NCBI GenBank assembly: GCA_044869275.1
Contig: JBIOXB010000139.1
Location: forward strand, 32,001 to 96,000
Length of the DNA: 64,000 bases
Origin: a bacterium
GTDB taxonomy: Bacteria > Zhuqueibacterota > Zhuqueibacteria > Zhuqueibacterales > Zhuqueibacteraceae
Direction: 5' to 3'
The notes under the pieces are model-generated. The model did no database searches and was not told the DNA's origin. It saw only the letters and a program-made list of their open reading frames with translations. Shown one piece after another: positions 31,572 through 59,588 of this stretch. Made by a program: the position numbers and the translations under genes. Within the stretch, counting starts at the first letter, position 1, and the number at the start of each line of letters is the position of its first letter.

Positions 31572-32304
31572 CACCATTTTGATCGAGGACGAGCCACTGG
31601 CTTTGCAGCGTCTGGAGCGTTTGCTGCAACCCTACAGGGAGATCATCGCCGTCGTCGATCGCGCGGCCGACGGCGAAGCGGCGGTGGCAAAGATCAACGC
31701 GCAGCAGCCCGATTTGATTTTTTTGGACATTCAAATGCCGGAGCTGAACGGCTTTGAGGTTTTGGCGCGCATTCAGCATTTGCCGTGGATCATTTTTTCC
31801 ACGGCTTACGACGAGTACGCGCTCAAGGCTTTCGAAACGAACGCCATCGATTATCTGCTCAAGCCCGTCGATCCGGAGCGCCTGCGCCGCGCCGTGGAGA
31901 AATTGCAGCGTTTGACGGGTGAAGAGAAAAAGGCGTGGCCGGAGCAATTACAACAGTTGCTGGCGGCATTCAAACAACCCGCGCTCAAGCGTTTGCAGGT
32001 CCGCCACGGCGATCACATTCGATTTTTGCCGGTGAAGGACATTCACTATTTTCAAGCCGAAGACAAATACGTGATCGCGCACACGTTCGAAGAAGCCTTT
32101 GTGCTGGATCAGACTTTGCACCAGTTGGAAGCGGATTTACCGGCGGAGGATTTCGTACGCATTCATCGCTCGGCGATCATCAATCTGAACCATTTGCAGG
32201 AAATCGTCCGCTCGTTCGGCAGTTTTCATGTACGCATGCGGGACCGGAATAAAACCGAGCTGCCGGTGAGCCGGAAAGCCAGGGCGAGATTGGGATTAGC
32301 GTGA
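31558..32304 (+). CDS. LytTR response regulator
   Basis: IEDE, FLDIQMP, DYLLKP, FVRIHRS, LPVSR. Confidence 0.95.
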   Translation: MRRYSTILIEDEPLALQRLERLLQPYREIIAVVDRAADGEAAVAKINAQQPDLIFLDIQMPELNGFEVLARIQHLPWIIFSTAYDEYALKAFETNAIDYLLKPVDPERLRRAVEKLQRLTGEEKKAWPEQLQQLLAAFKQPALKRLQVRHGDHIRFLPVKDIHYFQAEDKYVIAHTFEEAFVLDQTLHQLEADLPAEDFVRIHRSAIINLNHLQEIVRSFGSFHVRMRDRNKTELPVSRKARARLGLA

Positions 32305-38400: not shown

Positions 38401-38561
38401 CCGGACAGGGCCTGCGTCACCGGCCGCGAAACTTGACAAGCGCGCGCATTTGTCGTATATTCCCCAGTCTTTTCGAATCAAATTTGTTTAAGTGTTGAGT
38501 GGGCAGCGATCGACTCCACGCCCGCGCGGGGCTAGAAGCAGCCCGAGGATTCTTTCCGGCA

Positions 38562-41483
38562 ATGATATCCCAAGACTTTTCAGTCGAAAATATAACTTCG
38601 GAATTGAATGCGGAGCAGTGCGAGGCCGTGGAATTTCTCGGCGGCCCGCTCGCCATCATTGCCGGCGCGGGCACGGGCAAAACGCGCGTCATCACCTACC
38701 GCATCGCGTATTTAATCGCCGCTAAAATCGCCAAGCCCAATCAGATCCTCGCGCTCACCTTCACCGACAAAGCCGCCGCGGAAATGGAGGAGCGCGTCGA
38801 CCTGCTCGTGCCTTATGGCTACACCGATGTCACCATCTCCACTTTTCATTCCTTCGGCGACCGCCTGGTGCGCGAGTTTGCGGTGGATCTCGGCCTGGAT
38901 CCGGATTTCAAGCTCTTGAGCTCCGCTGAGCAAGCGCTGTTTTTACGCGAGCATCTTTTCGAATTGCCGCTGAAATATTATCGCCCTCTGGGCAATCCCA
39001 CCAAATTTCTGCACGAGCTCACCCGGCATTTCAGCCGTTTGAAAGATGAAGATATTGCGCCGGCGGAATATGTAGCGTTTGCAGAACAATCTTTGCAGCA
39101 TGCAACAGATGATGCTGCCGGACGCCGCGACGCCGAAAAGCAACTGGAATTGGCGCGTTGCTATGAAGCCTATCAAGGCTTGATGGCCAAAAATGGCTTT
39201 GTCGATTTCGGCGATCAAATCGCCTTGTGCACGCGCTTGCTGCGCGAGCATGCCGACGTCCAGCGCAAGCTGCAGCAGCGCTATCAACATATTTTAGTGG
39301 ATGAATTTCAGGACACGAATTACGCCCAGTTTCAATTGGTGAAGGAGCTTGCCGCGGGGCACAGAAATCTCACCGTGGTGGCAGATGACGATCAATCCAT
39401 TTACAAATTTCGCGGTGCGGCCATCAGCAATATTTTGAATTTTGACGCGACCTATCCCGCCGCGCATTACGTCGTACTCACCAAGAATTACCGTTCCACG
39501 CAAGCGATTTTAGACGCTTCGTATCGCTTGATCCGGCAAAATGATCCCGACCGTCTCGAAGTCAAACGCCACATCAACAAAAAACTCACGGGCCGCAAGC
39601 CGGGAGGCAAAGCCGTCGAGCATATGCATTTCGACACCTTGAGCGCGGAGGCCCAGGCGGTGGCGCAGCGCATCGCGGAAAAAGTCAGCGCCGGCTTGCA
39701 GCGTTACTCGGACTATTGCATTCTGGTGCGTTCGAACGGCGCGGCCGATCCTTATCTGCGCGCGCTGGCCGAAGCGCGCGTGCCCTTTCGGTTCTCCGGC
39801 AATCGCGGCCTGTTTCAGCGCGAAGAGATTCGTTTGCTGATCGCCTTTATGCGCGTGCTGGTGAATCCGCAGGATTCAGTCAGCCTGTATCATCTGGCAC
39901 AATCGGACATTTATCGCGTGCCTATGGCGGATCTGCAAGAATTCTTACAGAAGAGCCACGAAACCAATCGCTCCCTGCTCAACCTGTTTCGCAGTTTTGA
40001 TGACTCCACTTGGGAAAAGCCGGTCTCGCTTGAGGGCCGCGCCACGCTCGCCAAACTATTGTCGGATTACGACAAATATCTCGTCAAATCGCGCGAGCTG
40101 CCCACCTATGCGCTGCTGTATAATTTTTTGAAAGAATCCGGCTATTTACAGGGCTTGATCAACGGCAGCAATCTCGAAGGCGACGCCAAAATTCGCAATC
40201 TCGCCAAGTTTTTTTTAACCGTGCAGAATTACGCGCATTTCACCGAGAGTGGCGATCTCGCTTTTTTCGTGAAGCATCTCGATTTGATGCGCGAGTTCGG
40301 CGACGACCCCGGCATGGCCGATCCTGACCTCGACGCCGAGGCCGTGCAGGTCATGACGGTGCACAAAGCCAAGGGCCTGGAGTTTCCCATCGTTTTCGTG
40401 GTGGGATTGGTCGATCAAAGATTTCCCACCGTCGCGCGCAGCTCGACGATCGAATTGCCGGAAGGCATCATCAAAGATACTTTGCCCGAAGGCGATTTTC
40501 ATCTGCAGGAAGAACGGCGGCTGTTTTACGTGGCCATGACGCGCGCCCAAAGCGAGCTTTATCTCACCAGCAGCCGCGATCACGGCGGTGCGCGCTTGCG
40601 CAAGGTGAGCCGGTTCGTGAAAGAAGCCATCGATGCCGCGCACACGGACGAGGATTTCATTAAAATCTCGCCGCTGGAAACATTGGCGCGCTTCGATATT
40701 CCCGACAAACCGCAGGCGGAGGAGCGCCACGCTCTGCCCGAAGATCAACCGCTCACCCTCGATCCGCACAAGATCGACGACTATCTCACCTGCCCGCTGA
40801 AATATAAATACATTCACGTGCTGCGCGTGCCGCTGCAGCCGCATCATTCCATCATTTACGGCCAGGCGATTCACGCCGCGATCAAGGAATATAATCAACG
40901 CAAAAAACAGCGCCGGCCTGTGACCAGTGAGGATTTGCTGCGTGTGTTTCAGGCCAAGTGGCGCAATCTCGGCTTTATCAGCCGCGAGCACGAGGATTTG
41001 CGCTTTGCGCGCGGCCAGGAGATTCTGCAAAAGTTCTTTGAGCAGGCGGAAAAAGAAAAACGCGTTCCGGTTTATGCCGAAGAAGCTTTTCACTTTCAAT
41101 TCGACCATCTGACCATCGCCGGCCGCTGGGATCGCGTGGATGAAGAGGGCGGCGAAGTCCATATCACGGATTACAAAGCCTCGGAAGTTGAAGATCAAAA
41201 AAAAGCGAATGAGCGCGCACGCGACAGTTTGCAATTGCGCATCTATGCCTGGGCATACGAGGAACGATTTGGCCGTGCGGTGAATGGCTGGCGCATGCAC
41301 TTCCTCGAATCCGGCGTGATCGGCGAAGCCGGGCGCAAGGACGTTTATTTCAACAAAGCGCGCAACGACGTGACGAAAGCCGCCACCGGCATTCGCCGGC
41401 GTGACTACACCCCCACGCCCAGCGCGTTCGTATGCCCCCATTGCGCGTTTCAGGATATTTGTCCGGCGGCGGAGCGTGAATAA
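38562..41483 (+). CDS. UvrD/PcrA-like SF1 helicase with a C-terminal PD-(D/E)XK nuclease
   Basis: AGAGTGKT, VDEFQD, MTVHKAKGLEF, EERRLFYVAMTRA; GRWDRVD...DYK; YLTCP and CPHC...C Fe-S cysteines. Confidence 0.93.
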   Translation: MISQDFSVENITSELNAEQCEAVEFLGGPLAIIAGAGTGKTRVITYRIAYLIAAKIAKPNQILALTFTDKAAAEMEERVDLLVPYGYTDVTISTFHSFGDRLVREFAVDLGLDPDFKLLSSAEQALFLREHLFELPLKYYRPLGNPTKFLHELTRHFSRLKDEDIAPAEYVAFAEQSLQHATDDAAGRRDAEKQLELARCYEAYQGLMAKNGFVDFGDQIALCTRLLREHADVQRKLQQRYQHILVDEFQDTNYAQFQLVKELAAGHRNLTVVADDDQSIYKFRGAAISNILNFDATYPAAHYVVLTKNYRSTQAILDASYRLIRQNDPDRLEVKRHINKKLTGRKPGGKAVEHMHFDTLSAEAQAVAQRIAEKVSAGLQRYSDYCILVRSNGAADPYLRALAEARVPFRFSGNRGLFQREEIRLLIAFMRVLVNPQDSVSLYHLAQSDIYRVPMADLQEFLQKSHETNRSLLNLFRSFDDSTWEKPVSLEGRATLAKLLSDYDKYLVKSRELPTYALLYNFLKESGYLQGLINGSNLEGDAKIRNLAKFFLTVQNYAHFTESGDLAFFVKHLDLMREFGDDPGMADPDLDAEAVQVMTVHKAKGLEFPIVFVVGLVDQRFPTVARSSTIELPEGIIKDTLPEGDFHLQEERRLFYVAMTRAQSELYLTSSRDHGGARLRKVSRFVKEAIDAAHTDEDFIKISPLETLARFDIPDKPQAEERHALPEDQPLTLDPHKIDDYLTCPLKYKYIHVLRVPLQPHHSIIYGQAIHAAIKEYNQRKKQRRPVTSEDLLRVFQAKWRNLGFISREHEDLRFARGQEILQKFFEQAEKEKRVPVYAEEAFHFQFDHLTIAGRWDRVDEEGGEVHITDYKASEVEDQKKANERARDSLQLRIYAWAYEERFGRAVNGWRMHFLESGVIGEAGRKDVYFNKARNDVTKAATGIRRRDYTPTPSAFVCPHCAFQDICPAAERE

Positions 41484-41791
41484 AAAAGAAAAAGGCAAAG
41501 AGCAAAAAGAATGTTCAAATCTCGTTACGGCGGCCACCGTCGTAACCCAGAGAAGACGCTCTGCGTCGCACCGCGCAAAGAACGTTTGCGAAAACAGTTT
41601 GCCAAACTGAGTTGCCTAAATTTGACGGCGAAAAAACCACCAGCATTGATTCTACTCGCCTCAACTTTTTTAAGATTAAGAATAAAGCTTTTGATCAAAG
41701 AAATCAGTGTGAATCCGTGTCATCCGCGTTATCCGAGTTCTAAAAGGGGCTAATGAACAGCCTGTAAAAAATCGCCGACGTCTCGGGACTC

Positions 41792-43015
41792 ATGACTGAC
41801 ACCAAAAAGGATGTACGCTTGGCTTTCTCAATACTACATTTCTCCGACTTGCACCTCGATGCCAACTTCGCGAGCAGTTATCTGCCCACGAAAGTGGCAC
41901 GGCAGTGCCGGGAGCAATTGCGGCAGACGTTGCGGCACATTTTAGAGCTGGCAAAGACGCGCAAAGCCGATGCCGTGACCATTGCCGGCGATTTGTTCGA
42001 GCGCGAGCGTTTGTCGCATGATACCGCGGCTTTTTTGTATGAAGAGTTCGACAAGCTCTCTCCGATTCCGGTGTTCATCGCGCCGGGCAATCATGACGCC
42101 GCCGACGCGGTGTCGTTGTATCAGCGCGGCCGCTGGCCGGAGAACGTCAACATCGCCATCAAACCGAGCTTGACGGAGTGGCGATTATCGAAGGATTTTT
42201 CGTTGTGGTCGGCGGCGCATTTGTCGCCCAGCGACCGCCAGAATTTTCTCGAGAGCTTTCGCGTGCCGGAGCCGGCGGCGGGCGCGCTCAAGCCGTTTCC
42301 CATGCTATTGCTGCATGCGAGTGTCATGGCCTCGCGCACGACGGATTTGCGCGCACACGCGCCACTGACGCTCGACGACGTGCGCGCCGCCGGATTCACG
42401 CTGGCATTGTTGGGGCATTATCACACCAGCCGCGTGCTGCGCAGTGAGAAACTCGTCGCCGTGTATCCCGGCAGCCCGGAGCCCTTGGGATTTCAGAATG
42501 AAGGCGGGCATGATGTTGCCTGGATTCAACTCACGCCCGGCGAGGCGCCCAGCGTGGAATTGTATCCGATCGCGACGCTAAATTTTGAGAACCTCGCCAT
42601 CGCGATTGACGATTGCCAGCATCGCGAACAGCTGCTCGACAAGATTCTGCAGATCACGCAAGAAAAAAAGCTCGCGCATAGCATCTTGCGCCTGCAGCTC
42701 ACCGGACAAGCCGCAGCCAGTTTGCAGCTCGACCTCGATCTCCTCACCACGCGCCTCGAAAAAGAATTTGCCTATTTGCGCTTGGAAGATCTCACCCGGC
42801 CGGCGTGGGATTGGGAAAAGCTCGTCGAGGAACCCACGGCCCGCGGCGAATTCGTGCGCGACATGAGGAGCTTGAGCGAGCGCGAGCCGGCGCGCCAGGA
42901 GTTTTATCGTGAAGCCCTGCACTATGGCCTGCAAGCATTCGAACATGAAGACATTAGACTGCAATCCTTTGCAGACTCCAATGGCAAGAATGATGAAAAA
43001 AACCAAAGTCGATGA
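41792..43015 (+). CDS. SbcD/Mre11 (YhaO-like) DNA repair exonuclease
   Basis: SDLHLD, AGDLFE, PGNHD, LGHYH, YPGSPE. Confidence 0.92.
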   Translation: MTDTKKDVRLAFSILHFSDLHLDANFASSYLPTKVARQCREQLRQTLRHILELAKTRKADAVTIAGDLFERERLSHDTAAFLYEEFDKLSPIPVFIAPGNHDAADAVSLYQRGRWPENVNIAIKPSLTEWRLSKDFSLWSAAHLSPSDRQNFLESFRVPEPAAGALKPFPMLLLHASVMASRTTDLRAHAPLTLDDVRAAGFTLALLGHYHTSRVLRSEKLVAVYPGSPEPLGFQNEGGHDVAWIQLTPGEAPSVELYPIATLNFENLAIAIDDCQHREQLLDKILQITQEKKLAHSILRLQLTGQAAASLQLDLDLLTTRLEKEFAYLRLEDLTRPAWDWEKLVEEPTARGEFVRDMRSLSEREPARQEFYREALHYGLQAFEHEDIRLQSFADSNGKNDEKNQSR

Positions 43016-43030
43016 ACGGGCGTTGATGAC

Positions 43031-45814
43031 ATGAAATTGCTCGAGCTCAATCTCCAAGCCTTCGGGCGATTGTCGAACCGCAGCTTCACGTTTCATCCCC
43101 AGCTCAACGTCATCACCGGGCCGAATGAAGCGGGAAAATCGACTCTGCAGCACGCGATTCTGGCCTTGCTGTACGGCTTTTATAACCATGCGCGTGCGTT
43201 GCAGCGCGAACAGGAAATGCACGACCGCTTCCGGCCCTGGGGCTCGGAGAAATATGCCGGCAGTCTGAAATATCGCCTCGACGACGGCACGGCCTTGATC
43301 GTCCATCGCGATTTCGCGCATGACGACATTTCCACGCAATTGCTCGATGCCGTCACCGGCGAAGATTTGACCCAACGCTACGCGCGTGGACGGCACGGCA
43401 AAAGTGATTTCATCGAAAGGCAGCTCGGCATGTCGCGCGCCGTGTTTTTGAATACCGCCTTCGTGCAGCAAGGCGAACTGCGCAGCTTCAAACAACGCGA
43501 CGCGGCGGGCATTTCCGATGCCATTTTGACTTTGCTGGATTCCGCCGGCACCGAAACCTCCGCCGAGCAAGCGCTCGAGCGCCTGGATAAGACCTTGCGT
43601 GAGCTGTTCAGCGAACGCTCCCCCAAAACCGTGCTCTCGCAGGCGCGCCAGCGCCTCGAAGATTTGCACGAGAAACGCGCGCTGCGCCAAGCCACGCAAC
43701 GCGCGGTGCAGCAAGAAATCGAAAAAGCCGAAACGCTCTCCCTGGAAATCGACGAGCTCAAATCGCACGTTGAAGCGCTGGCGCGGCAACTGTTGGAAAC
43801 GCAGCTTGAATTGCTGCGCGCACGCTTGCGCCGCTGGCAGGAAAGCGAGAGCCGCCGGCAAAAATTGGAGGCCGAGACCGCGGAGCTGGCACACCTCGCG
43901 AATTTTCCGGTGGAGCTCAAAGAGCAGTTTTTTCAGTTGCGCGACGAATTTCTGCATCTGGAAAAATTACATCTGGTGCTGGCGGACGAGCGCAACAGCA
44001 TCGAGCTGCGCTTGATGGGCCTGCAGGAAAAGAGCGGCAGCGCACCGGTGCCCGTCCGGCTCTGGCAGAATTCTTCCTTCGAAGATTTTCTCGCGTTGCG
44101 GCAGCGCTGGCAAACAGCATTTGAAGAAGTCATCGGCAGCGAGAGCGCGTGCCATGCCGCGGACGATCAACTCAAGAGCGCCGGTATCGGCGAACCCGAG
44201 CGCGCCTTGTTCGCCTCCTTGGATGCGCCGCGGCTGGAACATTTGCGCGAGTTTGAGGCGGCGCTCAACGAAGCCGAAGCGGAAGTCAACGGCATCCGCG
44301 CTGAATTTGAGGCGCATGGACGCGAGTTGCCGCACCGCCGCCGCGTGCTCGGCTTCGTCTCCGGCATCGCGCTCTTCACCATGATTACTTCGCTGATCCA
44401 TATCGGCATGAGCCCGGAGGGCACCTCCCATTTTGGCGACGCCATGCTGGTGTTTTTGAGTTTTGCGATTTTACTAGGCTGCCTCGCCGTTGAGGTGCGC
44501 GGCCAGGCCTCCGGCAAGGAATTGCGCCGCGAATTGGTGGATTCCGAAAATAAATTCATGGAAGAGCGGCGCCGGCTGCGCGACGTCTTGTTGCAATATC
44601 GTGCGGACTCCTTGAACGAGCTGATGCAGCGCCGCATGCAATATCTCGAGCTGAACGCGGCAGTGGAAAAGCACCGACAGCTCAGGGCGGAGATGGAAAA
44701 AATCGAAAAAGGCTTGCAGCCCTGGATGGCGGAATTGGGCATCGGTCACATTGCGATGGAAACCGTGACGGAAGCCGAGAAACGGCTGCGGGAAAGCCAT
44801 CAACTGTATGCTGCCAACCAATCTCTGCATCAACGCCTGCAGGAAATCCAACGGCAGCAGCAAGACCTGCAAAAGAACCGGCAAAGCTACGTGCAGCAGC
44901 TCGAAGCGATTTTGCAAAGCGCCGGCATCGACGAGCCCGCGGGAGAAAAAGCATTTCAAGCATTTTTAGCGGGCTGCCAGAAGCGCGAATATCTCGATAC
45001 CGTGCGCATGCAAAAGCAGCAAGCGGAAACGCTCAGCACGGAGATCCTGGAAAACGAACGGGTGGAGGCTTTGTCCGCACAAATCAAACAGCTGGAAAGT
45101 GAATGGTCCGCCCTGCCTCCGCGCGTGAGCGGAGCCGCCAGCTCAAAGCGTGAGGTTTCCGAAAGCGCCATTGCCGCGCTGCGCACCACGCGTGAAAATG
45201 TGCAACGTGAGATTCACCAGCATCAGCAGGCGCTGTCGGTTTTGCAGGAGCGCATCGCCGCGCGCTTGCAAGGCCTGCCACCGCTCGCCGAAATCGAGGA
45301 AGAAATCGCCCGGGAAGAGGCGCGCATCGCGCGGTATGAAACCGCCAAGCAGGCTTTGGAGCTGGCGCGCGAGCGCATCGCGCAAGCGGCACAACGCCTG
45401 CATCGCGATTTCGTGCCGCGCTTGAAGGAATTTACCGCCAGCCATCTGGGAAAGCTCACCGCCGGAAAGTATACCGGCTTGTTGATCGATCCCGCGACGT
45501 TTGCCATGCGCGTGGAACGTGGCCAGCACGCGGCGCCGGTGGATTTGGAAAAGCTGAGCCACGGCACACGCGAACAGGTTTATCTCTTGTTGCGTGCCGC
45601 CGTCGCCGATCTGTTTGCGCACAATGCCGAAGCCGCTCCCCTGTTTTGGGACGATCCCCTGGTGCATGCCGATGCCGAACGCCAGCGCCAGGCGCTGGAG
45701 ATTTGCCCTTTGCTGGTGGAGAAACAACAACTTTTTTATTTCACCAAAGATCAAGAAATCGTGGAATATTTTCGCGAGCGTTACGGTTCGGAGGCAATCA
45801 TTCGGCTGGCGTAG
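43031..45814 (+). CDS. YhaN-like SMC/Rad50-type ATPase with a central 2-TM hairpin
   Basis: GPNEAGKST, long coiled coils, LSHGTREQ signature, WDDPLVHAD. Confidence 0.9.
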   Translation: MKLLELNLQAFGRLSNRSFTFHPQLNVITGPNEAGKSTLQHAILALLYGFYNHARALQREQEMHDRFRPWGSEKYAGSLKYRLDDGTALIVHRDFAHDDISTQLLDAVTGEDLTQRYARGRHGKSDFIERQLGMSRAVFLNTAFVQQGELRSFKQRDAAGISDAILTLLDSAGTETSAEQALERLDKTLRELFSERSPKTVLSQARQRLEDLHEKRALRQATQRAVQQEIEKAETLSLEIDELKSHVEALARQLLETQLELLRARLRRWQESESRRQKLEAETAELAHLANFPVELKEQFFQLRDEFLHLEKLHLVLADERNSIELRLMGLQEKSGSAPVPVRLWQNSSFEDFLALRQRWQTAFEEVIGSESACHAADDQLKSAGIGEPERALFASLDAPRLEHLREFEAALNEAEAEVNGIRAEFEAHGRELPHRRRVLGFVSGIALFTMITSLIHIGMSPEGTSHFGDAMLVFLSFAILLGCLAVEVRGQASGKELRRELVDSENKFMEERRRLRDVLLQYRADSLNELMQRRMQYLELNAAVEKHRQLRAEMEKIEKGLQPWMAELGIGHIAMETVTEAEKRLRESHQLYAANQSLHQRLQEIQRQQQDLQKNRQSYVQQLEAILQSAGIDEPAGEKAFQAFLAGCQKREYLDTVRMQKQQAETLSTEILENERVEALSAQIKQLESEWSALPPRVSGAASSKREVSESAIAALRTTRENVQREIHQHQQALSVLQERIAARLQGLPPLAEIEEEIAREEARIARYETAKQALELARERIAQAAQRLHRDFVPRLKEFTASHLGKLTAGKYTGLLIDPATFAMRVERGQHAAPVDLEKLSHGTREQVYLLLRAAVADLFAHNAEAAPLFWDDPLVHADAERQRQALEICPLLVEKQQLFYFTKDQEIVEYFRERYGSEAIIRLA

Positions 45815-48976: not shown

Positions 48977-49829
48977 TCATTGATTTAATACCATCACCGC
49001 TTTCGTTTGGGTTTGGCCGTGGGCTTGCACGCAAACGACATACATGCCACTAGATCTGCCTCCGGTGCGATCAAAGCCATCCCACTCTAGGGCATTCCGG
49101 CCTTGGGGCATCTTCTGATTCTCACACAAAGTCTTAACCAGACGCCCCGCGGGGTTGTAAACTTTCACCGCCACCGCCGCGGGCTGGCCTAGCTCGAAGG
49201 AGATCGTCACCGTTCGTGCCAAACAGCATATTGCCTTCATCATCCTGCACGATGCACTTCACGCGGTAAGGAGTGAGATACTTGCTTGGGAGCGGCCCGC
49301 AGGTGGTATCCGGCACCCAGGAAGAATTCATCCATTTGAAGTAACCGGCGGGCGTAAACTTGAACCACTGGCCGGAAGAGTCCCTCCTGCCGATGTCGGC
49401 GCTGGACATGGCGCCACACCAGAGATTGCCTTGCACATCGAGATAAAGCGAAAGCATGCGATTTTCCGCGAGTCCAGCGCCTCGCTTGAAATGCTGCCAG
49501 GTTCGGTCTTTGATATGGAAGCGAAATAGGCCGTCAATGGTGCCCACCCAAAGCACATCAGATTTGTAATCCAGCGCCAGCGCGGTCACTTCTGCAACGA
49601 CCGCGCCCTGCGAGGTCATGGGCACGAAGCTTTCGAATGTGCTGCCGTCAAAACGATACACACCGTTGAAGCCAGTTCCAAACCAAATGGTTTTGGCTCT
49701 GTCACTATAAACTATAGGATTGACGTTATTGAAAGGCAGAAAGTGCGTCCATCGTTGTGCGGCCGCCGGCCCGCAGGCACCAAGCGCTATCAGAGCGGTA
49801 ATCGAAGATAGTACTTTGATGCTCTTCAT
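48977..49829 (-). pseudogene. Internally deleted exported beta-propeller protein with a C-terminal FlgD-Ig sorting domain
   Basis: Signal peptide and IWFGT/LWVGT/GNLW repeats (49829 to ~49210), joined out of frame to VKVYNPAGRLVKTL...WDG...SGMY. Confidence 0.75.
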
Positions 49830-50370
49830 GGCTCATTGATTCCCTGCGGATCAATCCTAAACTTAAATTGCCCGGGGCCGGGAGCTCCTCGCGGATCACG
49901 AGGAAATCGACATTCTCGCATTTCCAAACTCGCCGGGTCAAAGCCCATCCGGTCCATGCTTACCGTCGTCCCATTGGAGACGTGTGGTTCCGCGAGGGCC
50001 GTGAACGTTGCTGCCGGACTGTCGCAGAATCTGACCTCATTCGATGAAATATAAAACCATGGTGAGAACGGATTAACCGAGGCATTGCATAACTTCAGGT
50101 CAATCGTCAGCGTATCCGGATTATCTGCGGCTTTGGCCAGCAGATTGCACGCTGTAACGCAAACGCGGTAATTGGTTAAGACGCTAACGGGAATGAAGAT
50201 CTGACCGTTGACGTTGCCGATGTGATTGCCGAAAGCTTCAGCTATCAAACCTGCGCGTTGCACACCCTCGATTTTCCCGAGAAATACTACACACTCCATC
50301 GCAAAAAGCGTATCGAGCTTGAATTCGATGGAAATTTCCACGACTTTTTTACGTGCACGGCCAGGAAGAT
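49826..50370 (-). pseudogene. Probable 3' remnant of a gene
   Basis: Open frame whose stop overlaps (ATGA) the next start; no clear start or RBS. Confidence 0.35.
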
Positions 50371-52215
50371 TCAATGCCGAGTATTTTGATACTTTTTGTA
50401 GATGTGCATGATCCCCGGCACATAGGCGGCGGTTTCCGCTGGCATCCCCTCCGCGCCACCGCCGTGAAGCTGCCATCTCCCCGCCCAACGTTCACCGGCG
50501 TTGTACCCAGCCAGGCCGGCCTCCATGCCATACATGTCGATCAACATGGCGAGATAACGGCAGCCGAGCCGGAGGTTGTAGTTCGGATTGAAAAGAACTT
50601 CCTCCGCGCTGGTCCAGGGAATGCCTTCGGCCTCGGCCAAGTAAATGCCGGTGGCCGGCATGATTTGCATCAATCCCATTGCGCCAGCCCACGAAACCGC
50701 GTTCGGATTCCAGGAGGCCTCAAAGGTAATCGTGGCACAGATCAGCTCGATATTCAATTGGGGATATTTGCGCGTCATGCGCTCGATCTCGTCGGCCAGA
50801 GACAGCCTCAGCGCCGATTCCAACTTCGGGGCCAGGCGGTCGATCATCCTCCTCGCCCTTTCCAGATCGAGCTGGCGCAGACTATCCGATTGTTGGATGG
50901 CCTGCAGCTTCTGGGCATGATCTTGCAGGCCATCGAGCTGTACCCGTTGGTGCTGCTGCGAGCGCTGCAGATGCTTGTGCAGTTCGATCGCAGCGGGCCC
51001 CCAAACCACCGCCAGAGTGAAGGCGGCGACTTCGATTGCCGCAACGCGAAGCCGGCGGCGCTTGGGTGTCTCTAGCTCTGCGACAAAAGGCGGCGCGGCG
51101 CTGTCGTATGCTTCCTCGTCGAGGTCTGCCACTGCCGGGTAGTCAAGGGCTTTGCGAGCGAGAGCTTCTTCCTCTGTCGCAGCCGGCATGGTCACGGCAA
51201 CTGCAGGAGAGGAAAGCGGCCATGCGGCCTCCTCTTCCGGCGCGCTGACAATATCGACCTCCAAAGCTTTCAACACCTCTGGCATGGAGAAGGCCAGGGC
51301 AAAACGAGGCGCGGTGCTGCTGGCGAAATGCAGTGCCACCGCACGCCGCGTTGAACTCTCCAGCCACCATGCACCGGAGTCTCCCGCACCGCTGAGCGGC
51401 TGTTCTGGTGCTTCCGGCGCAATGTGGACCAGCGGACCCACCACGTGGTTGGTGCTGCCATACAAATGCATGGCATAACCCAACACCCCGGTGATGACAC
51501 CGCGAGTGACACCGGTTCCTGCGCCGGATTTTATCACGCGCATTCCCAATTGCGGAATGGTCACGCCGGTCACAGGGCCGATTCCAATTTGCTCATGGCG
51601 CAGTGGCTTGAGACTGCGAAGCTGCGCCACGGCCGCGTCCAGGCCACAGTGGATGGCGCTGCGCTGGTATTCGGCGATGGTTTCCGCTTCGCCGTCCGCC
51701 GCCCTCGCGATGAGCGAGCCCAGCTGCATCTCTTGCTCCCCCGGCTCCGCCCCCGATAACACGTGCCAACTGCTGAGCAGCATCTCCGCGCCGCTTTGCC
51801 GGTCGCGCACTTTACCGCCCAAAGTTCCCCGGCGATGATCATGTGGATTCGAGAGGGCGAGCCCTCCTGCCAGAAACGGGCGCGAATCGCAAAGCTCCTC
51901 TGCACGCGTTGAAGTGGCCTGCCACCAATCCAAGCGGTAAATGGCCTCGGGGACGTCAACGGCAAAGCCCAAACGCTGAGCCTCGATCACGCGGTGCGAT
52001 TCGGCAACCGCCCATGCTTGAAAGGCCGCGTCCAGCAGTTTGCGGCGAAGGTGAATGCGCACCGCCAGCTCCGGCTCGAGCCTATGCTGGTCGGCGGAAC
52101 GCGTGCGCAAACCGAGATCGATGAGCGCGACGTTCGGATCGTCGAGATACAGGACCAAGGCCTTTTCGAGCGCGCGGCGTGCAGCGCTCCAGGTTTTCGG
52201 ATCAATGTTCATCAT
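50371..52215 (-). CDS. Fusion of a trypsin/Nal1-like serine protease, TM, coiled coil and SLT lytic transglycosylase
   Basis: Triad motifs SWHVL, LDAA, GDSGA; SLT motifs FEAS, AMGLMQIMP, GYNAG, ETAAYV. Confidence 0.85.
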   Translation of the reverse strand: MMNIDPKTWSAARRALEKALVLYLDDPNVALIDLGLRTRSADQHRLEPELAVRIHLRRKLLDAAFQAWAVAESHRVIEAQRLGFAVDVPEAIYRLDWWQATSTRAEELCDSRPFLAGGLALSNPHDHRRGTLGGKVRDRQSGAEMLLSSWHVLSGAEPGEQEMQLGSLIARAADGEAETIAEYQRSAIHCGLDAAVAQLRSLKPLRHEQIGIGPVTGVTIPQLGMRVIKSGAGTGVTRGVITGVLGYAMHLYGSTNHVVGPLVHIAPEAPEQPLSGAGDSGAWWLESSTRRAVALHFASSTAPRFALAFSMPEVLKALEVDIVSAPEEEAAWPLSSPAVAVTMPAATEEEALARKALDYPAVADLDEEAYDSAAPPFVAELETPKRRRLRVAAIEVAAFTLAVVWGPAAIELHKHLQRSQQHQRVQLDGLQDHAQKLQAIQQSDSLRQLDLERARRMIDRLAPKLESALRLSLADEIERMTRKYPQLNIELICATITFEASWNPNAVSWAGAMGLMQIMPATGIYLAEAEGIPWTSAEEVLFNPNYNLRLGCRYLAMLIDMYGMEAGLAGYNAGERWAGRWQLHGGGAEGMPAETAAYVPGIMHIYKKYQNTRH

Positions 52216-52230
52216 ATGCTTCTTTGATGC

Positions 52231-52965
52231 TCAAGGGGCGACTCTTAAAAACGGTCCTCGATAAAAAGCCATCGGAGAATCGGGGCGAAGCGCAAAGGCG
52301 ACGAGCTGCAATAGATAATGCCCGATGCCGGGGACTTTGAATTCAACCCGCAGGTCATATTCAGTTTGACCGGGATACATTATTTCTGTTTGCGAGCCCA
52401 GCAGCTTGCACTCGCCGGTGTTGGTGTCGGCAGCATGAATTTGAACGCAGAGAGAAATATGCGGCGGAACCGAGCTCGGGATCAACTTGCCAGCCACGCC
52501 GCAGCGAATTTCGCCGCGCAAGTATTTTATCGTTGTGGCGTTCGACCTGGCCGGCATTTCCACCGGTGCGAATCTGACCTCGTCGATGGACAATGCCGGT
52601 TCGGGTGGGCGAATTTCCAGCATTGCTTCGCCTGCCTTCTTCTCCGCGACATTCTCTTCTTTTTCTTCACACGACACAGCGGCAATTGCCTTTTCATTGG
52701 CAAACAATTGCGCCCAATCCAACCATTCCTGACTGGCAATGCTTGTGGCCGCGATCGCAGTGCCGGCGCGTTCTTGCAGCTCGCGCGACAGGGTTTCCGG
52801 CGTATGCCCCAAAAAGTCGGAGAACTTTCGTATGCCCACACTGTTGAGCGCCATCTCCATGGCCGGATCGATGCCGGGGATATTCAACAAGTCATCACGA
52901 CCTAAAAGCAGCAGGGCTGAAGACGGCAAGACCGTCGGTTGGTAATTGTGCTCGGCTTGTTTCAT
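52231..52965 (-). CDS. Helix-hairpin-helix-like protein with a C-terminal beta-sandwich-like domain
   Basis: DDLLNIPGIDPAMEMALNSVGIRKF HhH-like motif; C-terminal GHYLL...GPFL. Confidence 0.7.
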   Translation of the reverse strand: MKQAEHNYQPTVLPSSALLLLGRDDLLNIPGIDPAMEMALNSVGIRKFSDFLGHTPETLSRELQERAGTAIAATSIASQEWLDWAQLFANEKAIAAVSCEEKEENVAEKKAGEAMLEIRPPEPALSIDEVRFAPVEMPARSNATTIKYLRGEIRCGVAGKLIPSSVPPHISLCVQIHAADTNTGECKLLGSQTEIMYPGQTEYDLRVEFKVPGIGHYLLQLVAFALRPDSPMAFYRGPFLRVAP

Positions 52966-53168
52966 TTTCGACAATCTCCATTTTATGCTTGCGCTCTCCA
53001 AGAGATTGAAGTATATTGATTTTACCTTCTCCAAGAGAGCCGCAGAGAGCGCACACGCTTGACCAGCGATCGGACCAATGTATTGGCTGCTGACGCGTGA
53101 CCTTATGCATGCTTGTGGCGCGCTTGAAAACATCCTGCCTTAACCCTTCAAAACCAGGAGAACATACA

Positions 53169-53405
53169 ATGTCTAATGTCATCAATGTCAATTTCAATCC
53201 CACACCTGACTTTGAACATCATGAAACCCAAGGCTCACGCAACGGCGACTGGATCGTTTTTCGTTGCGCGCAATGCCAGGATTACGAACGCCGGCTGAAT
53301 TGGCGCACCGGAGAAACCACGGTGCGGAATAGCAGTGCCAACATCGATCATCATGGCAAGTATTACCCGCGGGACATCATAGCCGCCTTCGAGAATGTCA
53401 ATTAA
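53169..53405 (+). CDS. Small hypothetical protein with a CxxC motif
   Basis: AGGAG RBS; FRCAQCQDYER; 78 aa. Confidence 0.65.
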   Translation: MSNVINVNFNPTPDFEHHETQGSRNGDWIVFRCAQCQDYERRLNWRTGETTVRNSSANIDHHGKYYPRDIIAAFENVN

Positions 53406-54439
53406 TTAGCGAACATCAGGCCGCCATCGAGTGAAGCCGTGCAGGTCGAATGCTCTCCCTTCGTCATGGCGAGAGTCACCGTAGCATGGAGGCGATAGGC
53501 ACCGGCCAGCAACGGCTTGGCGATCAAATTCAGAGTAACAATTCCTGTCGGAGTAATATGATCGTGTGCTTCAACGAGGATTTCACCCAAGTTGCTACTT
53601 AAACTTTTCGCGTAAACGATGGCTTCATAAGCCATCGGCGCCGTGCCGAACTTGTTCACCGCTTCAAGATCAAGGGTGAGACGTAAACCAAATGACCGGC
53701 CAGCTCTTACCTGGCGAGGGCCAGTAGCGTCGGCTTTCGAGATTTCCAGTTTCCGCAGATGCGGCACGTGACCGTTATTCGGGGGGGCAACCGGTGAAGC
53801 CGCTGGCCCAACCGGCGCAGCTTGACGTTCCTTCCGCTGTAGCTTTTGCTGCAGAGCGTGAGCGGCGGGCGATTCCAGTAAAGCCGGGGGAAGTGAGCCA
53901 CCGATCGATTTTTTGTCCAACGCGGATGCGGGCAAATCTATCTTTGCCTCGTATGCCGCAGCAAGGGCTTTGGGTTTTTCCAAAATGGCCAATCTTTTTT
54001 CCAATTCTTGCATTCGGCCTTCGCCATAGAGTCGTTGCCGCTCAATCTCGCTGCGATCCCCTTTTAGCGCCTCGGCCTGTTGCACGGCATTCTCTGCCGT
54101 TGCCTTCGCCTGTTCCTGAAGGCTGACAATCTCCTCCTGCATTTTCACAATCGCGCTCTTCAGCGCCTGCCCTTCTTGTTTGATGTTCTTCAGGTCCTCG
54201 AGCACCTCGTTTCGATCAGCAGGCGCTAACGCAGACTCAGCCCCGCCCCATTTCACCGAGATTTCTTCATCTGTGATAGTCACCAGCTTTGATTCCTCTG
54301 CCGGCGCAATGACAGGCGCGTCTATTGGTTTTTCCTGCTGGCCTTGGTTGTTTCTTTTGTGTTTTCTTTTTTTATGCTGCGCCAGCGCTCGCGACTGGCT
54401 TCTGTTTTCAGCTTGCTCTTCTTTTCTTAATGCGTTCAT
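53402..54439 (-). CDS. Coiled-coil protein with a C-terminal beta-sandwich-like domain
   Basis: GAGGTG RBS; heptad-rich middle; C-terminal AGAYRL...GGLM. Confidence 0.7.
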   Translation of the reverse strand: MNALRKEEQAENRSQSRALAQHKKRKHKRNNQGQQEKPIDAPVIAPAEESKLVTITDEEISVKWGGAESALAPADRNEVLEDLKNIKQEGQALKSAIVKMQEEIVSLQEQAKATAENAVQQAEALKGDRSEIERQRLYGEGRMQELEKRLAILEKPKALAAAYEAKIDLPASALDKKSIGGSLPPALLESPAAHALQQKLQRKERQAAPVGPAASPVAPPNNGHVPHLRKLEISKADATGPRQVRAGRSFGLRLTLDLEAVNKFGTAPMAYEAIVYAKSLSSNLGEILVEAHDHITPTGIVTLNLIAKPLLAGAYRLHATVTLAMTKGEHSTCTASLDGGLMFAN

Positions 54440-54576
54440 AACGCACCTCATGAGATAGCGATGATAACGGGAAATTGAGTGTCGTAACCCAATTTGTGCC
54501 GATGAAAACACTGGCCCCTCGCTGCTAGAAGTTGCGGCGAGGGGCCAAGTTGTTACTTGCAGCGAACTGCCAAGCA

Positions 54577-55020
54577 TTACGGCACCGATACGTAGAACTG
54601 CAGGATCCCACCTTCGCAGTAGCCGGCGATAGGACCAGGCGTTCCGACGAGGTTCAGATAAGTGATGGTCGTCACCAGCTTATAGGCGCCTGCCTCAATG
54701 GTGAAAGGCGGCGTGACAATCTCGGTCAGAAACGGCAGATAGAGGTTCGGTGCGACGCTGGGCGCTAAAGGCACCAGCACATCAGCCGCGGGGAGATCGT
54801 AATCGGGGTTATTTCCCAGACTTTCGAGACGGACACGCACGCGCCATGTGCCACCGATCATGGCATTCAAAGTGCCTTCGGTTTGTAGCTTGACGCGAAC
54901 ACGCCAAGTCTCGCTGGTCTTGATGAGAGAGGTAGGATCGAAGATACCAGCTTCGAACACCTCACAGGTACCGCTGACGTTGAAATCGGTACCGCGGTCC
55001 TCAAAGATGAATTCAGACAT
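54577..55020 (-). CDS. Hypothetical single-domain beta-rich protein
   Basis: GGAG RBS; 147 aa; AGAYKL...GGILQF. Confidence 0.8.
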   Translation of the reverse strand: MSEFIFEDRGTDFNVSGTCEVFEAGIFDPTSLIKTSETWRVRVKLQTEGTLNAMIGGTWRVRVRLESLGNNPDYDLPAADVLVPLAPSVAPNLYLPFLTEIVTPPFTIEAGAYKLVTTITYLNLVGTPGPIAGYCEGGILQFYVSVP

Positions 55021-55164: not shown

Positions 55165-55180
55165 TTCAAACGGCATGCCA
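55165..55180 (-). promoter_or_regulatory. Putative sigma54 -24/-12 promoter (GA variant)
   Basis: Minus strand TGGCATGCCGTTTGAA, ~145 bp upstream of the 55020 start. Confidence 0.45.
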
Positions 55181-56330: not shown

Positions 56331-56612
56331 TTCGGACCGGGAGGACTGCGCCCTGGTATTGGGCATTTTGAGCATTTCACCAGGTATGTCCCCAAGGCTA
56401 CGCCCTGGCGAGGCATAAACTAAAATGAGAGGCGGCACCGTTGTAAAATCATCGCTCTTGTCTCTTCAAAGAATTGTCCACGAAAAAGGAATCGCTTATA
56501 AAAAACTGAATGGACTAAACCCAGCGATTTGTCCCGAAATATTTCAAGCAAGATCATTGCGGTAAAATGATCGCCGCCGCATGCACGATTTGACACGACA
56601 TTGGAGCCACCC

Positions 56613-59588
56613 ATGCCAGCATCTGTGTTTGCCCATCATCGATTATGGGGGAGAATCACTCTCGGATTTCTTGCCGTGCTTTTGCCGCTCTGGCTTTTTG
56701 ATACGGTCGGATTTCTAAAGGCTTTCGAATTGCAGTTTTTGGACAGGATGATGAAGTTGCGCGGCCATCGCGACCCGAGCCCCAATCTCATCCTGGTCAC
56801 GATCGACAATCAGGCCGCCAACGCGCTGGGGTCGCCGCTGCCGCGGCGGTACTACACACAATTGCTGCGCGCCTTGAGCCAATACGGCGCCAAAACCATC
56901 GTGCTTGATCTGCAGTTCAACACGCATCATGATGTGGAAGCGGATATCGAACTCGCAAAACTCATGCAATCGCTCGGTAACGTCATCCAACCTTTTTTGT
57001 TTCAGTATCGTCTGGAAGATGACTTCGATCATAAAATCGAAAGGGCAACGCCGCAGAACAGCGCGTATGCACAATTCAGTATAAGGCCTAAGCAATACGC
57101 TGATCTTTCCTTTATCTTGGGTGACTCGGCGATGCTGCCGCATCGAATTTTTATTGAAACCGCGGCCAAGGCCGGCCTGGTTTTTATCTATCCGGACGAC
57201 GACGGCGGATACCGCCGGCTGCCCTTGTTGTGTAAAAACTTTGGAAAAGTCTATGCGGCCTTGAGCTTGTTAGCGATCTGCGATTATCACAACATTTCGC
57301 CGGACAGCTTGCGCATTCAGCAGAATTTTTGGGGGTATCAACTCGCTCTCCCTTTCGCATCAACCGCGGTCAATATACCCATCAACCGGCAGGGGCAGAC
57401 GCTGCTGAATTTTTACGGTCCATTTGAAGCTTTCAAATCCTATTCGATCCTTGACATTCTCGAATCGTTGCAGGAGCTCGAGCAGCGCAAAGCGCCGCGC
57501 GTGCCCTTGCGAGATTTTGCCGGCAAAATCGTTCTCCTCGGCACCAACGAGAGCCTGCGCAAGGATTTCTTCGTCACTCCTTTTGCCGAGGATTTTCCCG
57601 GCATGGGCATTCATGCCACCGCCATCAGCAATTTTCTCAACGGCGACAGCTTGCGGCAGTTGCCGCAGCGCCTCGAGGCCGGACTCGTTATTATTCTCGC
57701 TCTCCTCCTGACCGGCGGCATGTTGCTCGCCAGCCGCCTCAACAAAGCGCGCGAGACAATTTATGCCGGGCTGATCTTTGGGGCAATTTTGCTGGCGTTC
57801 AATGCGTGTGCCTATGTGCTGCTGTTCGAAAGCTGGCATGTTGTGCCTCCCATGCTGAAAACCAATGGCGCGCTCGTACTGTTGTTTGTTGCCACGACGA
57901 TTTATGAAAAAAACTGGGGCGTCAGGACGCTCAATCGCGAGGTCGGGCGCTTGGAAAGCGCCATGCAAGAGCGCTTGGCAGAAATGAACACGCTCAATGC
58001 CAAGATCAGCGCCCGTGATGAAGAATACAAAACGCTGGAGTTTTTAATCAAAGACTTCGAAAATCTTTTTTCTCATCCGCCGGCCGAGCTGACCAGTTTG
58101 TTGCAGAATCCGCTGGATCGCATGCGCCTTGTCAAAGAACAAATTAGATATGAATTGGATCACTTGCATGATGACAAACATCGCCTGGAGAATGAGAATA
58201 AAGATCTCGAATCACAAATAATAAGGCTCAGAGCAATCCAACCGGAACCTGCCCCCGGCGCGGCAGAAAAGAATAAGGAGGCCCCCACTCCTGGAGAAAC
58301 GCCGCAGAAAAAATTGGAAGAAATGAATGGGGTGATGGAGCAATATAAAAAATTCAGGGATAAAGCCCAGGTTACGCACTATTTCGATCCGGCGTTCAAC
58401 ATGATCACCGCGGTGATGAATGGCCGGCCCGATGACGAGCCGAAAAAATCCAAAATGCAGGAAATCTTCTCGCTCATCGAGCGCATTAGCCCGTATGATT
58501 CCACAGTATTGATCACGGGCGCCATCGGCACCGGCAAAACGGAATTGGCCAAAGCCATCCACCATCGCAGCCGTCGCAAACAGGGGCCATTCAAGTGCAT
58601 CAACATTGCGTCGATTCCGGAGAATTTGATCGAGTCCGAGTTGTTTGGCCATACCAAAGGCGCGTTTACCGGCGCCCTGAACGATCGCAAAGGCGCGTTT
58701 GAATACCTCAACGGCGGCACCATCGTTCTCGATGAGATCGGCGACCTCAAACCGGAATCGCAAGTCAAATTGTTGCACGTGCTGCAGGAGAAAAAGTTCA
58801 GCCGTGTGGGTAGCAACGAGCAGATCGAAGTCGACGTGCGCATTATCACCGCCACCAACCAGGACTTGCAGGAGCTTATCCGGGAGAAAAAGTTCCGCGA
58901 AGATTTGTATTCCCGGTTGAATGTGATCCGCATTCAGGTGCCGCCATTGCGCGAGCGCCGCGAGGAAATTCCCCACTACGTCCATTATTTTTTGGCCAAT
59001 TTCAACAAAAAATATGATCAACAAAAACGCGTAAGCGACGATGCCTTGATGGCCATGATTCTCCACGATTGGCAAAACAACATTCGTGATCTGAAAAATG
59101 CGGTGGATAGAGCCTACGTCCACAGTGGGGACCATACCATCCGTCTGGGCGACTTGGATGAAGACATGCAAAAAAGTTATCGCGCCGTTTTTACCGAGCA
59201 ATCCGCCAGCATGTGGGAAGGCTTGGTCAAAAGCGCTCGAGCAGAAATAGACAACCTGATGGACAAGTGCCGGGAGCTTCTGCATGCGGGGAATGTCGAG
59301 CAAGCTTTACAGTTGGGCCAGCTCAAAATGGGGGATTTGACTTACGAAAGCTGCTATGAATGCATCCAAGCTTATCTCGACAATGAAGGTTCATCCTTTC
59401 CGCACAACCAGAGAGAAAAGCTGGCCAAGCAAATCATCGTGGTTATGCAAAAGGAACTTTACGCCTGGTGCAAGGAGGAAAAACTCGGCAGCATGGAGGT
59501 TTTGTCCAAAGAAATCGAAAAACTGCTCGGCCGTGGCCGCCGGCAAGTGGACAATTGGGAACGCGAAGTCGGCGCGCCCGCGCGGTAA
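56613..59588 (+). CDS. Membrane-bound CHASE2-domain sigma54-dependent activator (bEBP)
   Basis: TM, CHASE2 (LVTID, PRRYY, DDDGGYRR, GKIVLLG, PGMGIHA), 3 TMs, coiled coil, AAA+ with ESELFGHTKGAFTGA, LDEIG, FREDLYSRL; C-terminal HTH-like segment. Confidence 0.9.
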   Translation: MPASVFAHHRLWGRITLGFLAVLLPLWLFDTVGFLKAFELQFLDRMMKLRGHRDPSPNLILVTIDNQAANALGSPLPRRYYTQLLRALSQYGAKTIVLDLQFNTHHDVEADIELAKLMQSLGNVIQPFLFQYRLEDDFDHKIERATPQNSAYAQFSIRPKQYADLSFILGDSAMLPHRIFIETAAKAGLVFIYPDDDGGYRRLPLLCKNFGKVYAALSLLAICDYHNISPDSLRIQQNFWGYQLALPFASTAVNIPINRQGQTLLNFYGPFEAFKSYSILDILESLQELEQRKAPRVPLRDFAGKIVLLGTNESLRKDFFVTPFAEDFPGMGIHATAISNFLNGDSLRQLPQRLEAGLVIILALLLTGGMLLASRLNKARETIYAGLIFGAILLAFNACAYVLLFESWHVVPPMLKTNGALVLLFVATTIYEKNWGVRTLNREVGRLESAMQERLAEMNTLNAKISARDEEYKTLEFLIKDFENLFSHPPAELTSLLQNPLDRMRLVKEQIRYELDHLHDDKHRLENENKDLESQIIRLRAIQPEPAPGAAEKNKEAPTPGETPQKKLEEMNGVMEQYKKFRDKAQVTHYFDPAFNMITAVMNGRPDDEPKKSKMQEIFSLIERISPYDSTVLITGAIGTGKTELAKAIHHRSRRKQGPFKCINIASIPENLIESELFGHTKGAFTGALNDRKGAFEYLNGGTIVLDEIGDLKPESQVKLLHVLQEKKFSRVGSNEQIEVDVRIITATNQDLQELIREKKFREDLYSRLNVIRIQVPPLRERREEIPHYVHYFLANFNKKYDQQKRVSDDALMAMILHDWQNNIRDLKNAVDRAYVHSGDHTIRLGDLDEDMQKSYRAVFTEQSASMWEGLVKSARAEIDNLMDKCRELLHAGNVEQALQLGQLKMGDLTYESCYECIQAYLDNEGSSFPHNQREKLAKQIIVVMQKELYAWCKEEKLGSMEVLSKEIEKLLGRGRRQVDNWEREVGAPAR

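Follow-up and report, generated by a model that had tools for sequence, protein, structure and literature searches.

A NAL1-like serine protease fused through a predicted membrane helix to a lytic transglycosylase in an uncultured KSB1 bacterium

The rice protein NARROW LEAF 1 (NAL1; PDB 8hau, 7y77 and 8pmm) joins an ABD-like subdomain to a trypsin-fold protease domain that carries a His/Asp/Ser triad. As described in PMC12012508, alignment of this triad depends on trimer-to-hexamer assembly, activity is oligomer-dependent, and a structural ATP site is formed by R120, R122, K123 and K139. We describe a bacterial relative of NAL1 encoded on a 64,000-nucleotide stretch of DNA (contig JBIOXB010000139.1, positions 32,001 to 96,000; hereafter the window, numbered from its first letter) from a soil bacterium of the uncultured KSB1 group. 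The gene is an open reading frame (ORF) of 614 codons at 50371..52215 on the minus strand, and its product consists of a NAL1-like protease, a linker, a predicted transmembrane helix, a stalk and an SLT-type lytic transglycosylase domain. This fused protein shares with NAL1 the two-part fold and the triad, whereas sequence identity is only 15-17%, the plant N-terminal domain is absent, the counterparts of the ATP-ligand Arg residues are variable, and a C-terminal linker, membrane helix and SLT domain are present in addition.

On the transglycosylase side, Slt70, MltC and EmtA are soluble or anchored as lipoproteins in the outer membrane. The fused protein has the same catalytic Glu and the same GLMQ and YNxG motifs as these enzymes (PDB 1qsa, 4c5f and 6gi4), whereas it is predicted to be held by an internal inner-membrane helix followed by a stalk, and to carry a cytoplasmic enzyme of 330 residues. 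Members of the KSB1 group also encode stand-alone proteins made of a transmembrane helix, a stalk and an SLT domain, which differ from the fused protein in having no cytoplasmic domain. The arrangement recalls the zinc metalloproteases BlaR1 and MecR1, each of which has four helices and a non-turnover sensor. These proteins resemble the predicted layout of the fused protein in combining a wall-enzyme fold outside the cytoplasm with a membrane span, a protease inside and a neighbour that may bind DNA, but the fused protein has an S1-type protease, a single helix and an SLT domain whose catalytic residues are kept. The Pepco-Avs4 system (PMC12642450) resembles the present operon in placing a trypsin-like protease beside small beta-rich proteins that may be latent effectors; however, no STAND sensor is found here, and the immunoglobulin-like (Ig-like) proteins of the operon have 147-391 residues and no Pfam match, compared with 117 residues for Pepco. 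Our literature search took in listings and abstracts, and within it neither the present architecture nor bacterial NAL1 relatives with wall enzymes were described. Both domains belong to known enzyme families, but the joining of a cytoplasmic S1-type protease through a transmembrane segment to a lytic transglycosylase is undescribed in the literature searched. The architecture is unusual and conserved, and it is confined to an uncultured group.

A first-pass annotation of the window, made from the sequence alone, had reported a 614-residue ORF at the position given above. The ORF exists and the domain calls made for it were right, but the annotation had overlooked the strand, along with the conserved operon partners and the wider cassette described below: the plus-strand frame over 50371-52215 contains many stops, and the coding frame lies on the minus strand. 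Each motif that had been quoted was located in the protein, namely WHVL with His151, LDAA with Asp193, GDSG with Ser280, KRRR at residues 385-388, FEAS with Glu499, GLMQ and YNAG. An AlphaFold2 model computed from an alignment of 103 sequences has a mean predicted local distance difference test (pLDDT) score of 87.1. Residue conservation was counted over the same number of aligned rows, 53 of which bear an SLT domain.

The N-terminal domain (residues 1-328; 51232..52215, minus strand) comprises an N-terminal helix, a NAL1 ABD-like subdomain and a trypsin-fold protease domain, and is modelled confidently as a helix followed by a mainly beta fold. Among PDB sequences, the family profile matches rice NAL1 over two stretches (E 7e-12), and a profile of 56 relatives places nine rice NAL1 chains first (about E 1e-11), ahead of streptogrisin B and alpha-lytic protease. 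The structural comparison gives the same order: in a Foldseek search of the PDB, NAL1 chains rank first (8hau_D, E 1e-16, TM-score 0.64 on the target over about 370 columns) and bacterial S1 proteases rank behind them (TM-score 0.75-0.84). These matches bear out the earlier proposal of a Nal1-like N-domain. The whole domain is also matched by phrog_20754, a PHROG family annotated as ‘protease’, and its fold is present in two viral proteins; a tblastn search of GenBank phages with the domain returned no match. The domain has no Pfam match of its own up to E 10, where only noise was seen, NAL1_N (PF25608) and Nal1_C (PF25819) included. Its relatives match both of these families, mostly under the cut-offs.

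The trypsin-type triad is intact, as had been proposed. His151 (codon 51763..51765, minus strand) is His in 99 of the 103 rows, and Asp193 (51637..51639, minus strand) and Ser280 (51376..51378, minus strand) are kept in all 103. With regard to the ATP site of the rice protein, Lys59 aligns with Lys139 and is Lys in 77/103 rows, whereas Arg37, which aligns with R120 (Arg or Lys in 69/103), and Arg39, which aligns with R122 (52/103), are variable, and Ser40 takes the place of K123. A nucleotide site in the N-domain is therefore possible. The assembly requirement of NAL1 suggests that the protease could become active by clustering at the membrane.

The C-terminal domain (residues 467-612; 50380..50817, minus strand) is an SLT lytic transglycosylase domain of family 1, with a goose-lysozyme-like fold. 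Residues 484-582 match Pfam SLT (PF01464) with E 2.2e-18 and 66.4 bits against a cut-off of 21.3, and sequence searches also returned Slt70, MltC and EmtA. The model is all-helical over residues 467-612 with pLDDT above 90, and it matches viral LT_GEWL and transglycosylase folds. Glu499 (codon 50719..50721, minus strand) is Glu in 52 of the 53 SLT-bearing rows and in all 22 fused loci, and the columns of Glu499 (FEAS), GLMQ (514-517) and YNAG (571-574) are kept in 51-53 of those rows. The domain and its catalytic Glu, both named by the first-pass annotation, are thus present. No NCBIfam equivalog cut-off is reached (Slt70, MltC, EmtA, MltD and MltF; best scores 62 bits against 234 and 53 against 536), and the protein is therefore not an orthologue of any of these named enzymes. 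To judge from the conservation of the triad and of the SLT Glu, both enzymes look active. Stand-alone proteins of 240-300 residues with the transmembrane helix, stalk and SLT layout, often in several copies, were returned from 38 of 41 related genomes in this query, and they are 41-50% identical to the fused protein over residues ~390-613. The C-terminal half of the fused protein probably derives from them. A scan of genome contigs seeded on the SLT motifs returned generic SLT genes of many phyla and was uninformative for the fusion.

Between the two enzymes lies an acidic, Ala/Pro-rich linker (residues 329-383; 51067..51231, minus strand) with 12 Asp/Glu and 2 Lys/Arg in 55 residues, which is predicted to be disordered (pLDDT below 50). 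It is followed by the basic stretch KRRR, a predicted transmembrane helix (residues 389-412; 50980..51051, minus strand; Kyte-Doolittle 1.77) and a Gln-rich, coiled-coil-like helical stalk (residues 413-461; 50833..50979, minus strand) that is predicted to be periplasmic. In the model, residues 384-461 form a single continuous helix that takes in the hydrophobic stretch. Composition, hydropathy and structure prediction are thus in agreement with the linker, basic stretch, single hydrophobic helix and coiled coil noted earlier. Across the family, 57 of 58 fused homologues have the hydrophobic segment (mean Kyte-Doolittle 2.07), and in 55 homologues a constant 96-108 residues separate the helix from GLMQ. 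The length of the linker ranges from 19 to 216 residues, and a search of the linkers of fused homologues for a conserved motif or site found none.

A hydrophobic N-terminus is seen in 0/58 fused homologues, as expected from the earlier observation that there is no signal peptide. The most reasonable orientation places the protease inside and the SLT domain outside, because a folded N-domain of 330 residues that lacks a signal should stay inside, because the substrate of the SLT domain is outside, and because the stand-alone homologues of residues ~390-613 begin with the same helix as an N-terminal anchor. The topology proposed in the first-pass annotation, with a cytoplasmic protease and a periplasmic muralytic domain, stands in this form, although the positive-inside rule is indecisive. 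The fused protein is likely a one-pass membrane protein and the membrane-anchored last component of its operon. The layout differs from that of signal-anchor-release (SAR) endolysins and phage lysis cassettes in that the helix starts only at residue 389, after a predicted cytoplasmic part of 388 residues, and a search for an adjacent holin found no membrane protein encoded in the operon. The suggested role as a self-releasing lysin is improbable: cleavage in the cytoplasm would only leave a helix, stalk and SLT domain like those of the stand-alone paralogues, and the linker is variable with no conserved site.

Several lines of evidence establish that the fusion is real. A protein search gave 80 matches, and of the 58 with at least 500 residues, 55 carry both GDSG and the SLT motif G[LMI]MQ. 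There are at least 55 fused protein clusters, several of which are named candidate division KSB1. Fused genes occur in 9 of 41 genomes (that of the host and its relatives), all from one family (G000, G001 with three copies, G002, G005, G008, G011 with a degenerate copy, G014, G016 and G017), and in 13 of 77 metagenome loci from a scan seeded on the protease domain. In a second sample of the same study, one 993-nucleotide piece covers 50871-51863 with zero differences, and no joints or indels were seen. Sequencing run X1 contains the whole stretch, although the assembly may have been made from it. A tree was built from 130 N-domains, 62 of them fused and 68 stand-alone, with omission of rows that lacked a GDSG motif or exceeded the set limits of length in either direction. 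In this tree, the fused sequences form one side of a single branch (Shimodaira-Hasegawa-like approximate likelihood ratio test, SH-aLRT, 97), and their sister group is made up of the stand-alone protease copies of cassettes L012, L103 and L107. This pattern fits one old fusion event that followed a duplication within the KSB1 lineage.

The first-pass annotation had allowed that the fusion might be unique to this assembly, through deletion or misassembly. Instead, it is conserved, of single origin and independently assembled. Two genes wrongly joined would account for the fused frame with next to no probability, given the many independent fused homologues, the contig of another sample that bridges the junction without joints or indels, and the placement of all fused copies in one clade. 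An artefact of assembly or gene calling is ruled out on these grounds.

Loss of protease residues is rare, being found in only 2 of 22 fused copies (L011 and L019), and all 22 keep the SLT Glu. Both degenerate copies adjoin a free NAL1-like gene and retain the N-terminal ABD piece. The copy at L019:10090-11517 (G011:C6) lacks residues 106-215, the catalytic His and Asp included; this fused region appeared as three pieces in the genome search. The pattern suggests that the protease function is needed but can be supplied in trans.

The fused gene is the last of a predicted four-gene operon on the minus strand. The first gene (54577..55020) encodes a 147-residue protein made up of an Ig-like domain, and it is followed by a gene (53402..54577) for a 391-residue protein with a coiled-coil region and an Ig-like C-domain. 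The third gene (52231..53133) encodes a 300-residue protein with a basic N-terminus, a helix-hairpin-helix (HhH) bundle assigned by HHH_5, and a seven-stranded Ig-like C-domain; in its model, the helical bundle spans residues 90-164 and the sandwich spans residues 180-298. A gap of 15 nucleotides separates this gene from the fused gene downstream. The HhH gene precedes the fused gene in 8 of 9 genome loci (the exception is L016) and in 12 of 13 metagenome loci (the exception is L106), and homologues of the 147-residue protein are found in L015, L017, L018, L106, L109 and L150.

Profile comparison reveals that the three upstream proteins have in common an Ig-like C-domain of about 100 residues. 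Specifically, hhalign relates the 147-residue family to the 391-residue family (probability 96.7, E 4e-10) and the latter to the C-domain of the HhH family (probability 94.8, E 5e-8). By pairwise BLASTP, the 147-residue protein matches the 391-residue protein only at E 0.005 and has no match to the HhH protein. The HhH model weakly matches Sec63-type units of Brr2 (E 1e-5, TM-score 0.2-0.3) and Ig-like domains of glycosidases, from which no function is drawn. Two protein-atlas searches returned only ‘hypothetical protein’ clusters.

The operon is a KSB1 variant of a wider and uncharacterised NAL1-like protease cassette. A representative search with the N-domain returned 1515 clusters at E up to 0.001, and the 77 metagenome loci contain 67 stand-alone NAL1-like genes. 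A protein of about 250 residues and no assigned family is encoded upstream of the stand-alone protease in 37 of the 39 loci with room for it. Downstream, where 26 loci have room, an HhH/Ig protein is encoded in 17 and a small free copy of the first 60-90 residues of the protease in 10. The protease family and the HhH/Ig partner are therefore common to this cassette and the operon of the window, whereas the operon has two extra Ig-like proteins in place of the ~250-residue protein and a free protease, and its own protease is tethered to the membrane and to an SLT domain. The ~250-residue protein resembles the C-domain of the HhH protein weakly (probability 32), and its best PDB matches are weak ones to FN3 domains. 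The genome of the host contains a second cassette (G000:C53, corresponding to L011:7073-11146), with the ~250-residue protein, a free NAL1-like protease, an HhH/Ig protein and a 393-residue protein in which the first ~86 residues of the protease, the ABD piece, are fused to a transmembrane helix, stalk and SLT domain.

Fusion to wall hydrolases extends to other members of the protease family. Of 49 NAL1-like members scanned, four are fused to wall hydrolases other than SLT, none of them with a hydrophobic segment; the partners are Amidase_2 with LysM, Peptidase_M74 with PG_binding_1 and either GH19 or Amidase_2, and GH19 with PG_binding_1. One further member is fused to a KAP NTPase that matches QatA/PifA defence models and one to a subtilase. 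The fusions without SLT are proteins P0187, P0197, P0198, P0200, P0163 and P0156, which come from other metagenomes. In six loci (L012, L014, L019, L101, L102 and L104; for example, L019:3033-6444), a TPR-CHAT (caspase-like) protein of about 1000 residues is encoded just upstream of the cassette, preceded by TPR, ~607-residue and ~150-residue proteins and followed by a ~114-residue membrane protein. This set is possibly a separate protease-effector module.

A sigma-54-like element, TGGCATG-N4-TTTGAA, is located at 55165..55180 on the minus strand, 145 nucleotides upstream of the first start codon of the operon. The form TGGCAYG-N4-TTTGA has one match in the window against 0.02 expected, and a looser form has 12 matches in 556 kb of loci, 9 of which are on the cassette strand and 254-285 nucleotides upstream of the first cassette gene; the element thereby recurs in 9 related loci. 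A search upstream of the cassette genes for consistent, strict GG/GC sites found none. Divergently from the operon, a gene on the plus strand (56601..59588) encodes a 995-residue activator in which Pfam identifies CHASE2 and sigma-54-interaction AAA+ domains. A CHASE2 activator adjoins 10 of 23 fused loci (the window, L012, L017, L019, L101, L102, L103, L104, L107 and L122), a count limited by the many contigs that end too early to judge. At L017:8693-10396 (G001:C404), from the same genus, a GAF-domain sigma-54 activator is encoded directly downstream of the fused gene, besides the CHASE2 one. These arrangements make it likely that the operon is of sigma-54 type and CHASE2-regulated.

The reading that we favour, with a probability of roughly 40%, is that of a membrane-tethered protease that would process the Ig-like proteins of its operon, with an active transglycosylase opening the wall at the same time. 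The CHASE2 activator would sense a signal from outside and turn the operon on. The protease domain would then assemble into NAL1-like trimers or hexamers at the membrane, either by itself or, through its N-terminal ABD piece, together with a free paralogue, and would process the three Ig-like proteins (147-residue, 391-residue and HhH). Kept above the membrane by a stalk of about 50 residues, the tethered SLT domain would make local cuts in the glycan strands, so that proteolysis in the cytoplasm and opening of the wall would coincide in place and time. The result would be either a regulated remodelling of the envelope or lysis. We favour the view that the SLT domain acts as an output because its catalytic residues are kept, because relatives are fused to catalytic wall hydrolases and not to binding domains only, and because sensing seems to be delegated to the CHASE2 activator. 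The Ig-like proteins are favoured as substrates or partners because they are fixed neighbours and because loss of the protease is tolerated only beside a free paralogue, with the ABD docking piece retained. A coupling of wall cleavage to proteolysis, as raised in the first-pass annotation, fits this operon context. A stronger version is a chromosomal, holin-independent device for programmed wall opening, in which a CHASE2-induced cage protease, activated by oligomerization, matures latent Ig-like effectors and its own SLT domain breaches the wall; we regard this as unlikely.

A number of points weigh against the favoured reading. A tethered transglycosylase alone rarely lyses cells, and for this reason lysis as an outcome is speculative. 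The Ig-like proteins are putative substrates of the protease, and the SLT part might merely be a housekeeping enzyme that serves as an anchor, since stand-alone paralogues with the same helix, stalk and SLT domain are present in nearly every related genome. The proposed orientation is the most reasonable one, but the Lys and Arg residues flanking the helix do not decide it (the N-terminal side is higher in 24 homologues, equal in 11 and lower in 20; n=55). With respect to regulation, the GC of a canonical site at -12 is missing from the sigma-54-like element, the window contains no excess of the canonical consensus (46 matches, 46.5 expected), and the pattern was derived from these same loci, such that the evidence lies in position and recurrence and not in the window count. 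In addition, many of the loci come from related genomes and are not independent, L101 and L102 being near-copies.

Several other explanations draw on the same observations. The architecture, with a wall-binding fold outside and a protease inside, could be that of a transmembrane sensor-protease similar to BlaR1/MecR1, in which the SLT domain senses the condition of the peptidoglycan, such as its damage, its turnover or the action of foreign lysins, and switches on the protease by way of the single helix or by clustering. As the output, the protease would then cleave the neighbouring HhH protein or the other Ig-like proteins. The HhH protein, possibly DNA-binding, is a fixed neighbour, and peptidoglycan-binding domains are listed among the sensors fused to proteases of protease-effector modules in PMC12642450. 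However, a pure sensor would not need the catalytic Glu (52/53) and the SLT motifs, all of which are kept; relatives join the protease to several catalytic wall hydrolases in one chain, beyond mere binding domains; the CHASE2 activator already seems to do the sensing; and one helix with a disordered linker of 19-216 residues is a poor conveyor of conformational change. This possibility is accordingly given a small share of our confidence. The layout could also represent an anti-phage abortive-infection module, in which infection triggers the protease to free latent Ig-like or beta-rich death effectors and the SLT domain completes lysis. In Pepco-Avs4 (PMC12642450), too, the gene for a small beta-rich protein comes just before that of a trypsin-like protease, one family member carries the KAP NTPase that matches the QatA/PifA models, TPR-CHAT genes adjoin the cassette in the six loci named above, and NAL1-like folds occur in a PHROG family and two viral proteins. 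This proposal is nevertheless rather improbable: no PADLOC model matches the fusion, the HhH, 391-residue and 147-residue proteins, the ~250-residue cassette protein or the free protease; fusion to a STAND or any other known phage sensor is not seen; regulation through transcription activators, here of the CHASE2 and GAF sigma-54 kinds, would be unusual in defence genes; and the neighbours in the window are repair and efflux genes and not a defence island.

The simplest alternative, an ordinary membrane-bound lytic transglycosylase whose protease tail controls only its own level or release by self-processing, with no link to the neighbouring genes, is in our judgement quite improbable. The C-terminal 230 residues are indeed 41-50% identical to the stand-alone helix, stalk and SLT proteins of most related genomes, and the long, flexible linker of the model could reach the active site of its own protease. 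On the other hand, a cut on the cytoplasmic side cannot free the periplasmic domain, no motif is conserved in the linker and its length is variable (19-216 residues), the HhH gene is a near-constant upstream partner, and the protease-less variants that keep the ABD piece adjoin a free protease, which points to interaction with other cassette proteins. That members of this protease family have become fused to wall hydrolases repeatedly and independently suggests that the functional link is real. The fused protein offers a handle on the role of the widespread bacterial relatives of a rice yield protein, as well as on how cells couple cytoplasmic events to local cutting of the wall. The programmed wall-opening device, if true, would represent a new wiring of cytoplasmic proteolysis to peptidoglycan cleavage in one polypeptide and a first function for bacterial NAL1 relatives.

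Other genes of the window were noted in passing. A 220-residue ORF (49826-50488, minus strand) overlaps the 3ˊ end of the fused gene by 118 nucleotides; since it belongs to no family and related loci contain no homologue of it, this ORF is probably not a gene. The adjacent ORF (49134-49829, minus strand), which looks truncated, encodes a signal peptide and Reg_prop repeats. Farther away, a LytS-type histidine kinase and a LytTR response regulator form a pair (30474-32304, plus strand) for which no link to the fused gene was seen. A type VI secretion protein of the TssM/IcmF type is encoded at 19952-23263 (plus strand), 27 kb from the fused gene with unrelated genes between, and a type VI secretion cluster probably fills part of the first half of the window. 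A run of DNA-end-processing genes (38499-45814, plus strand) begins with a UvrD-type helicase that carries a PD-(D/E)XK nuclease and is AddA-like, followed by SbcD-like and SbcC-like genes.

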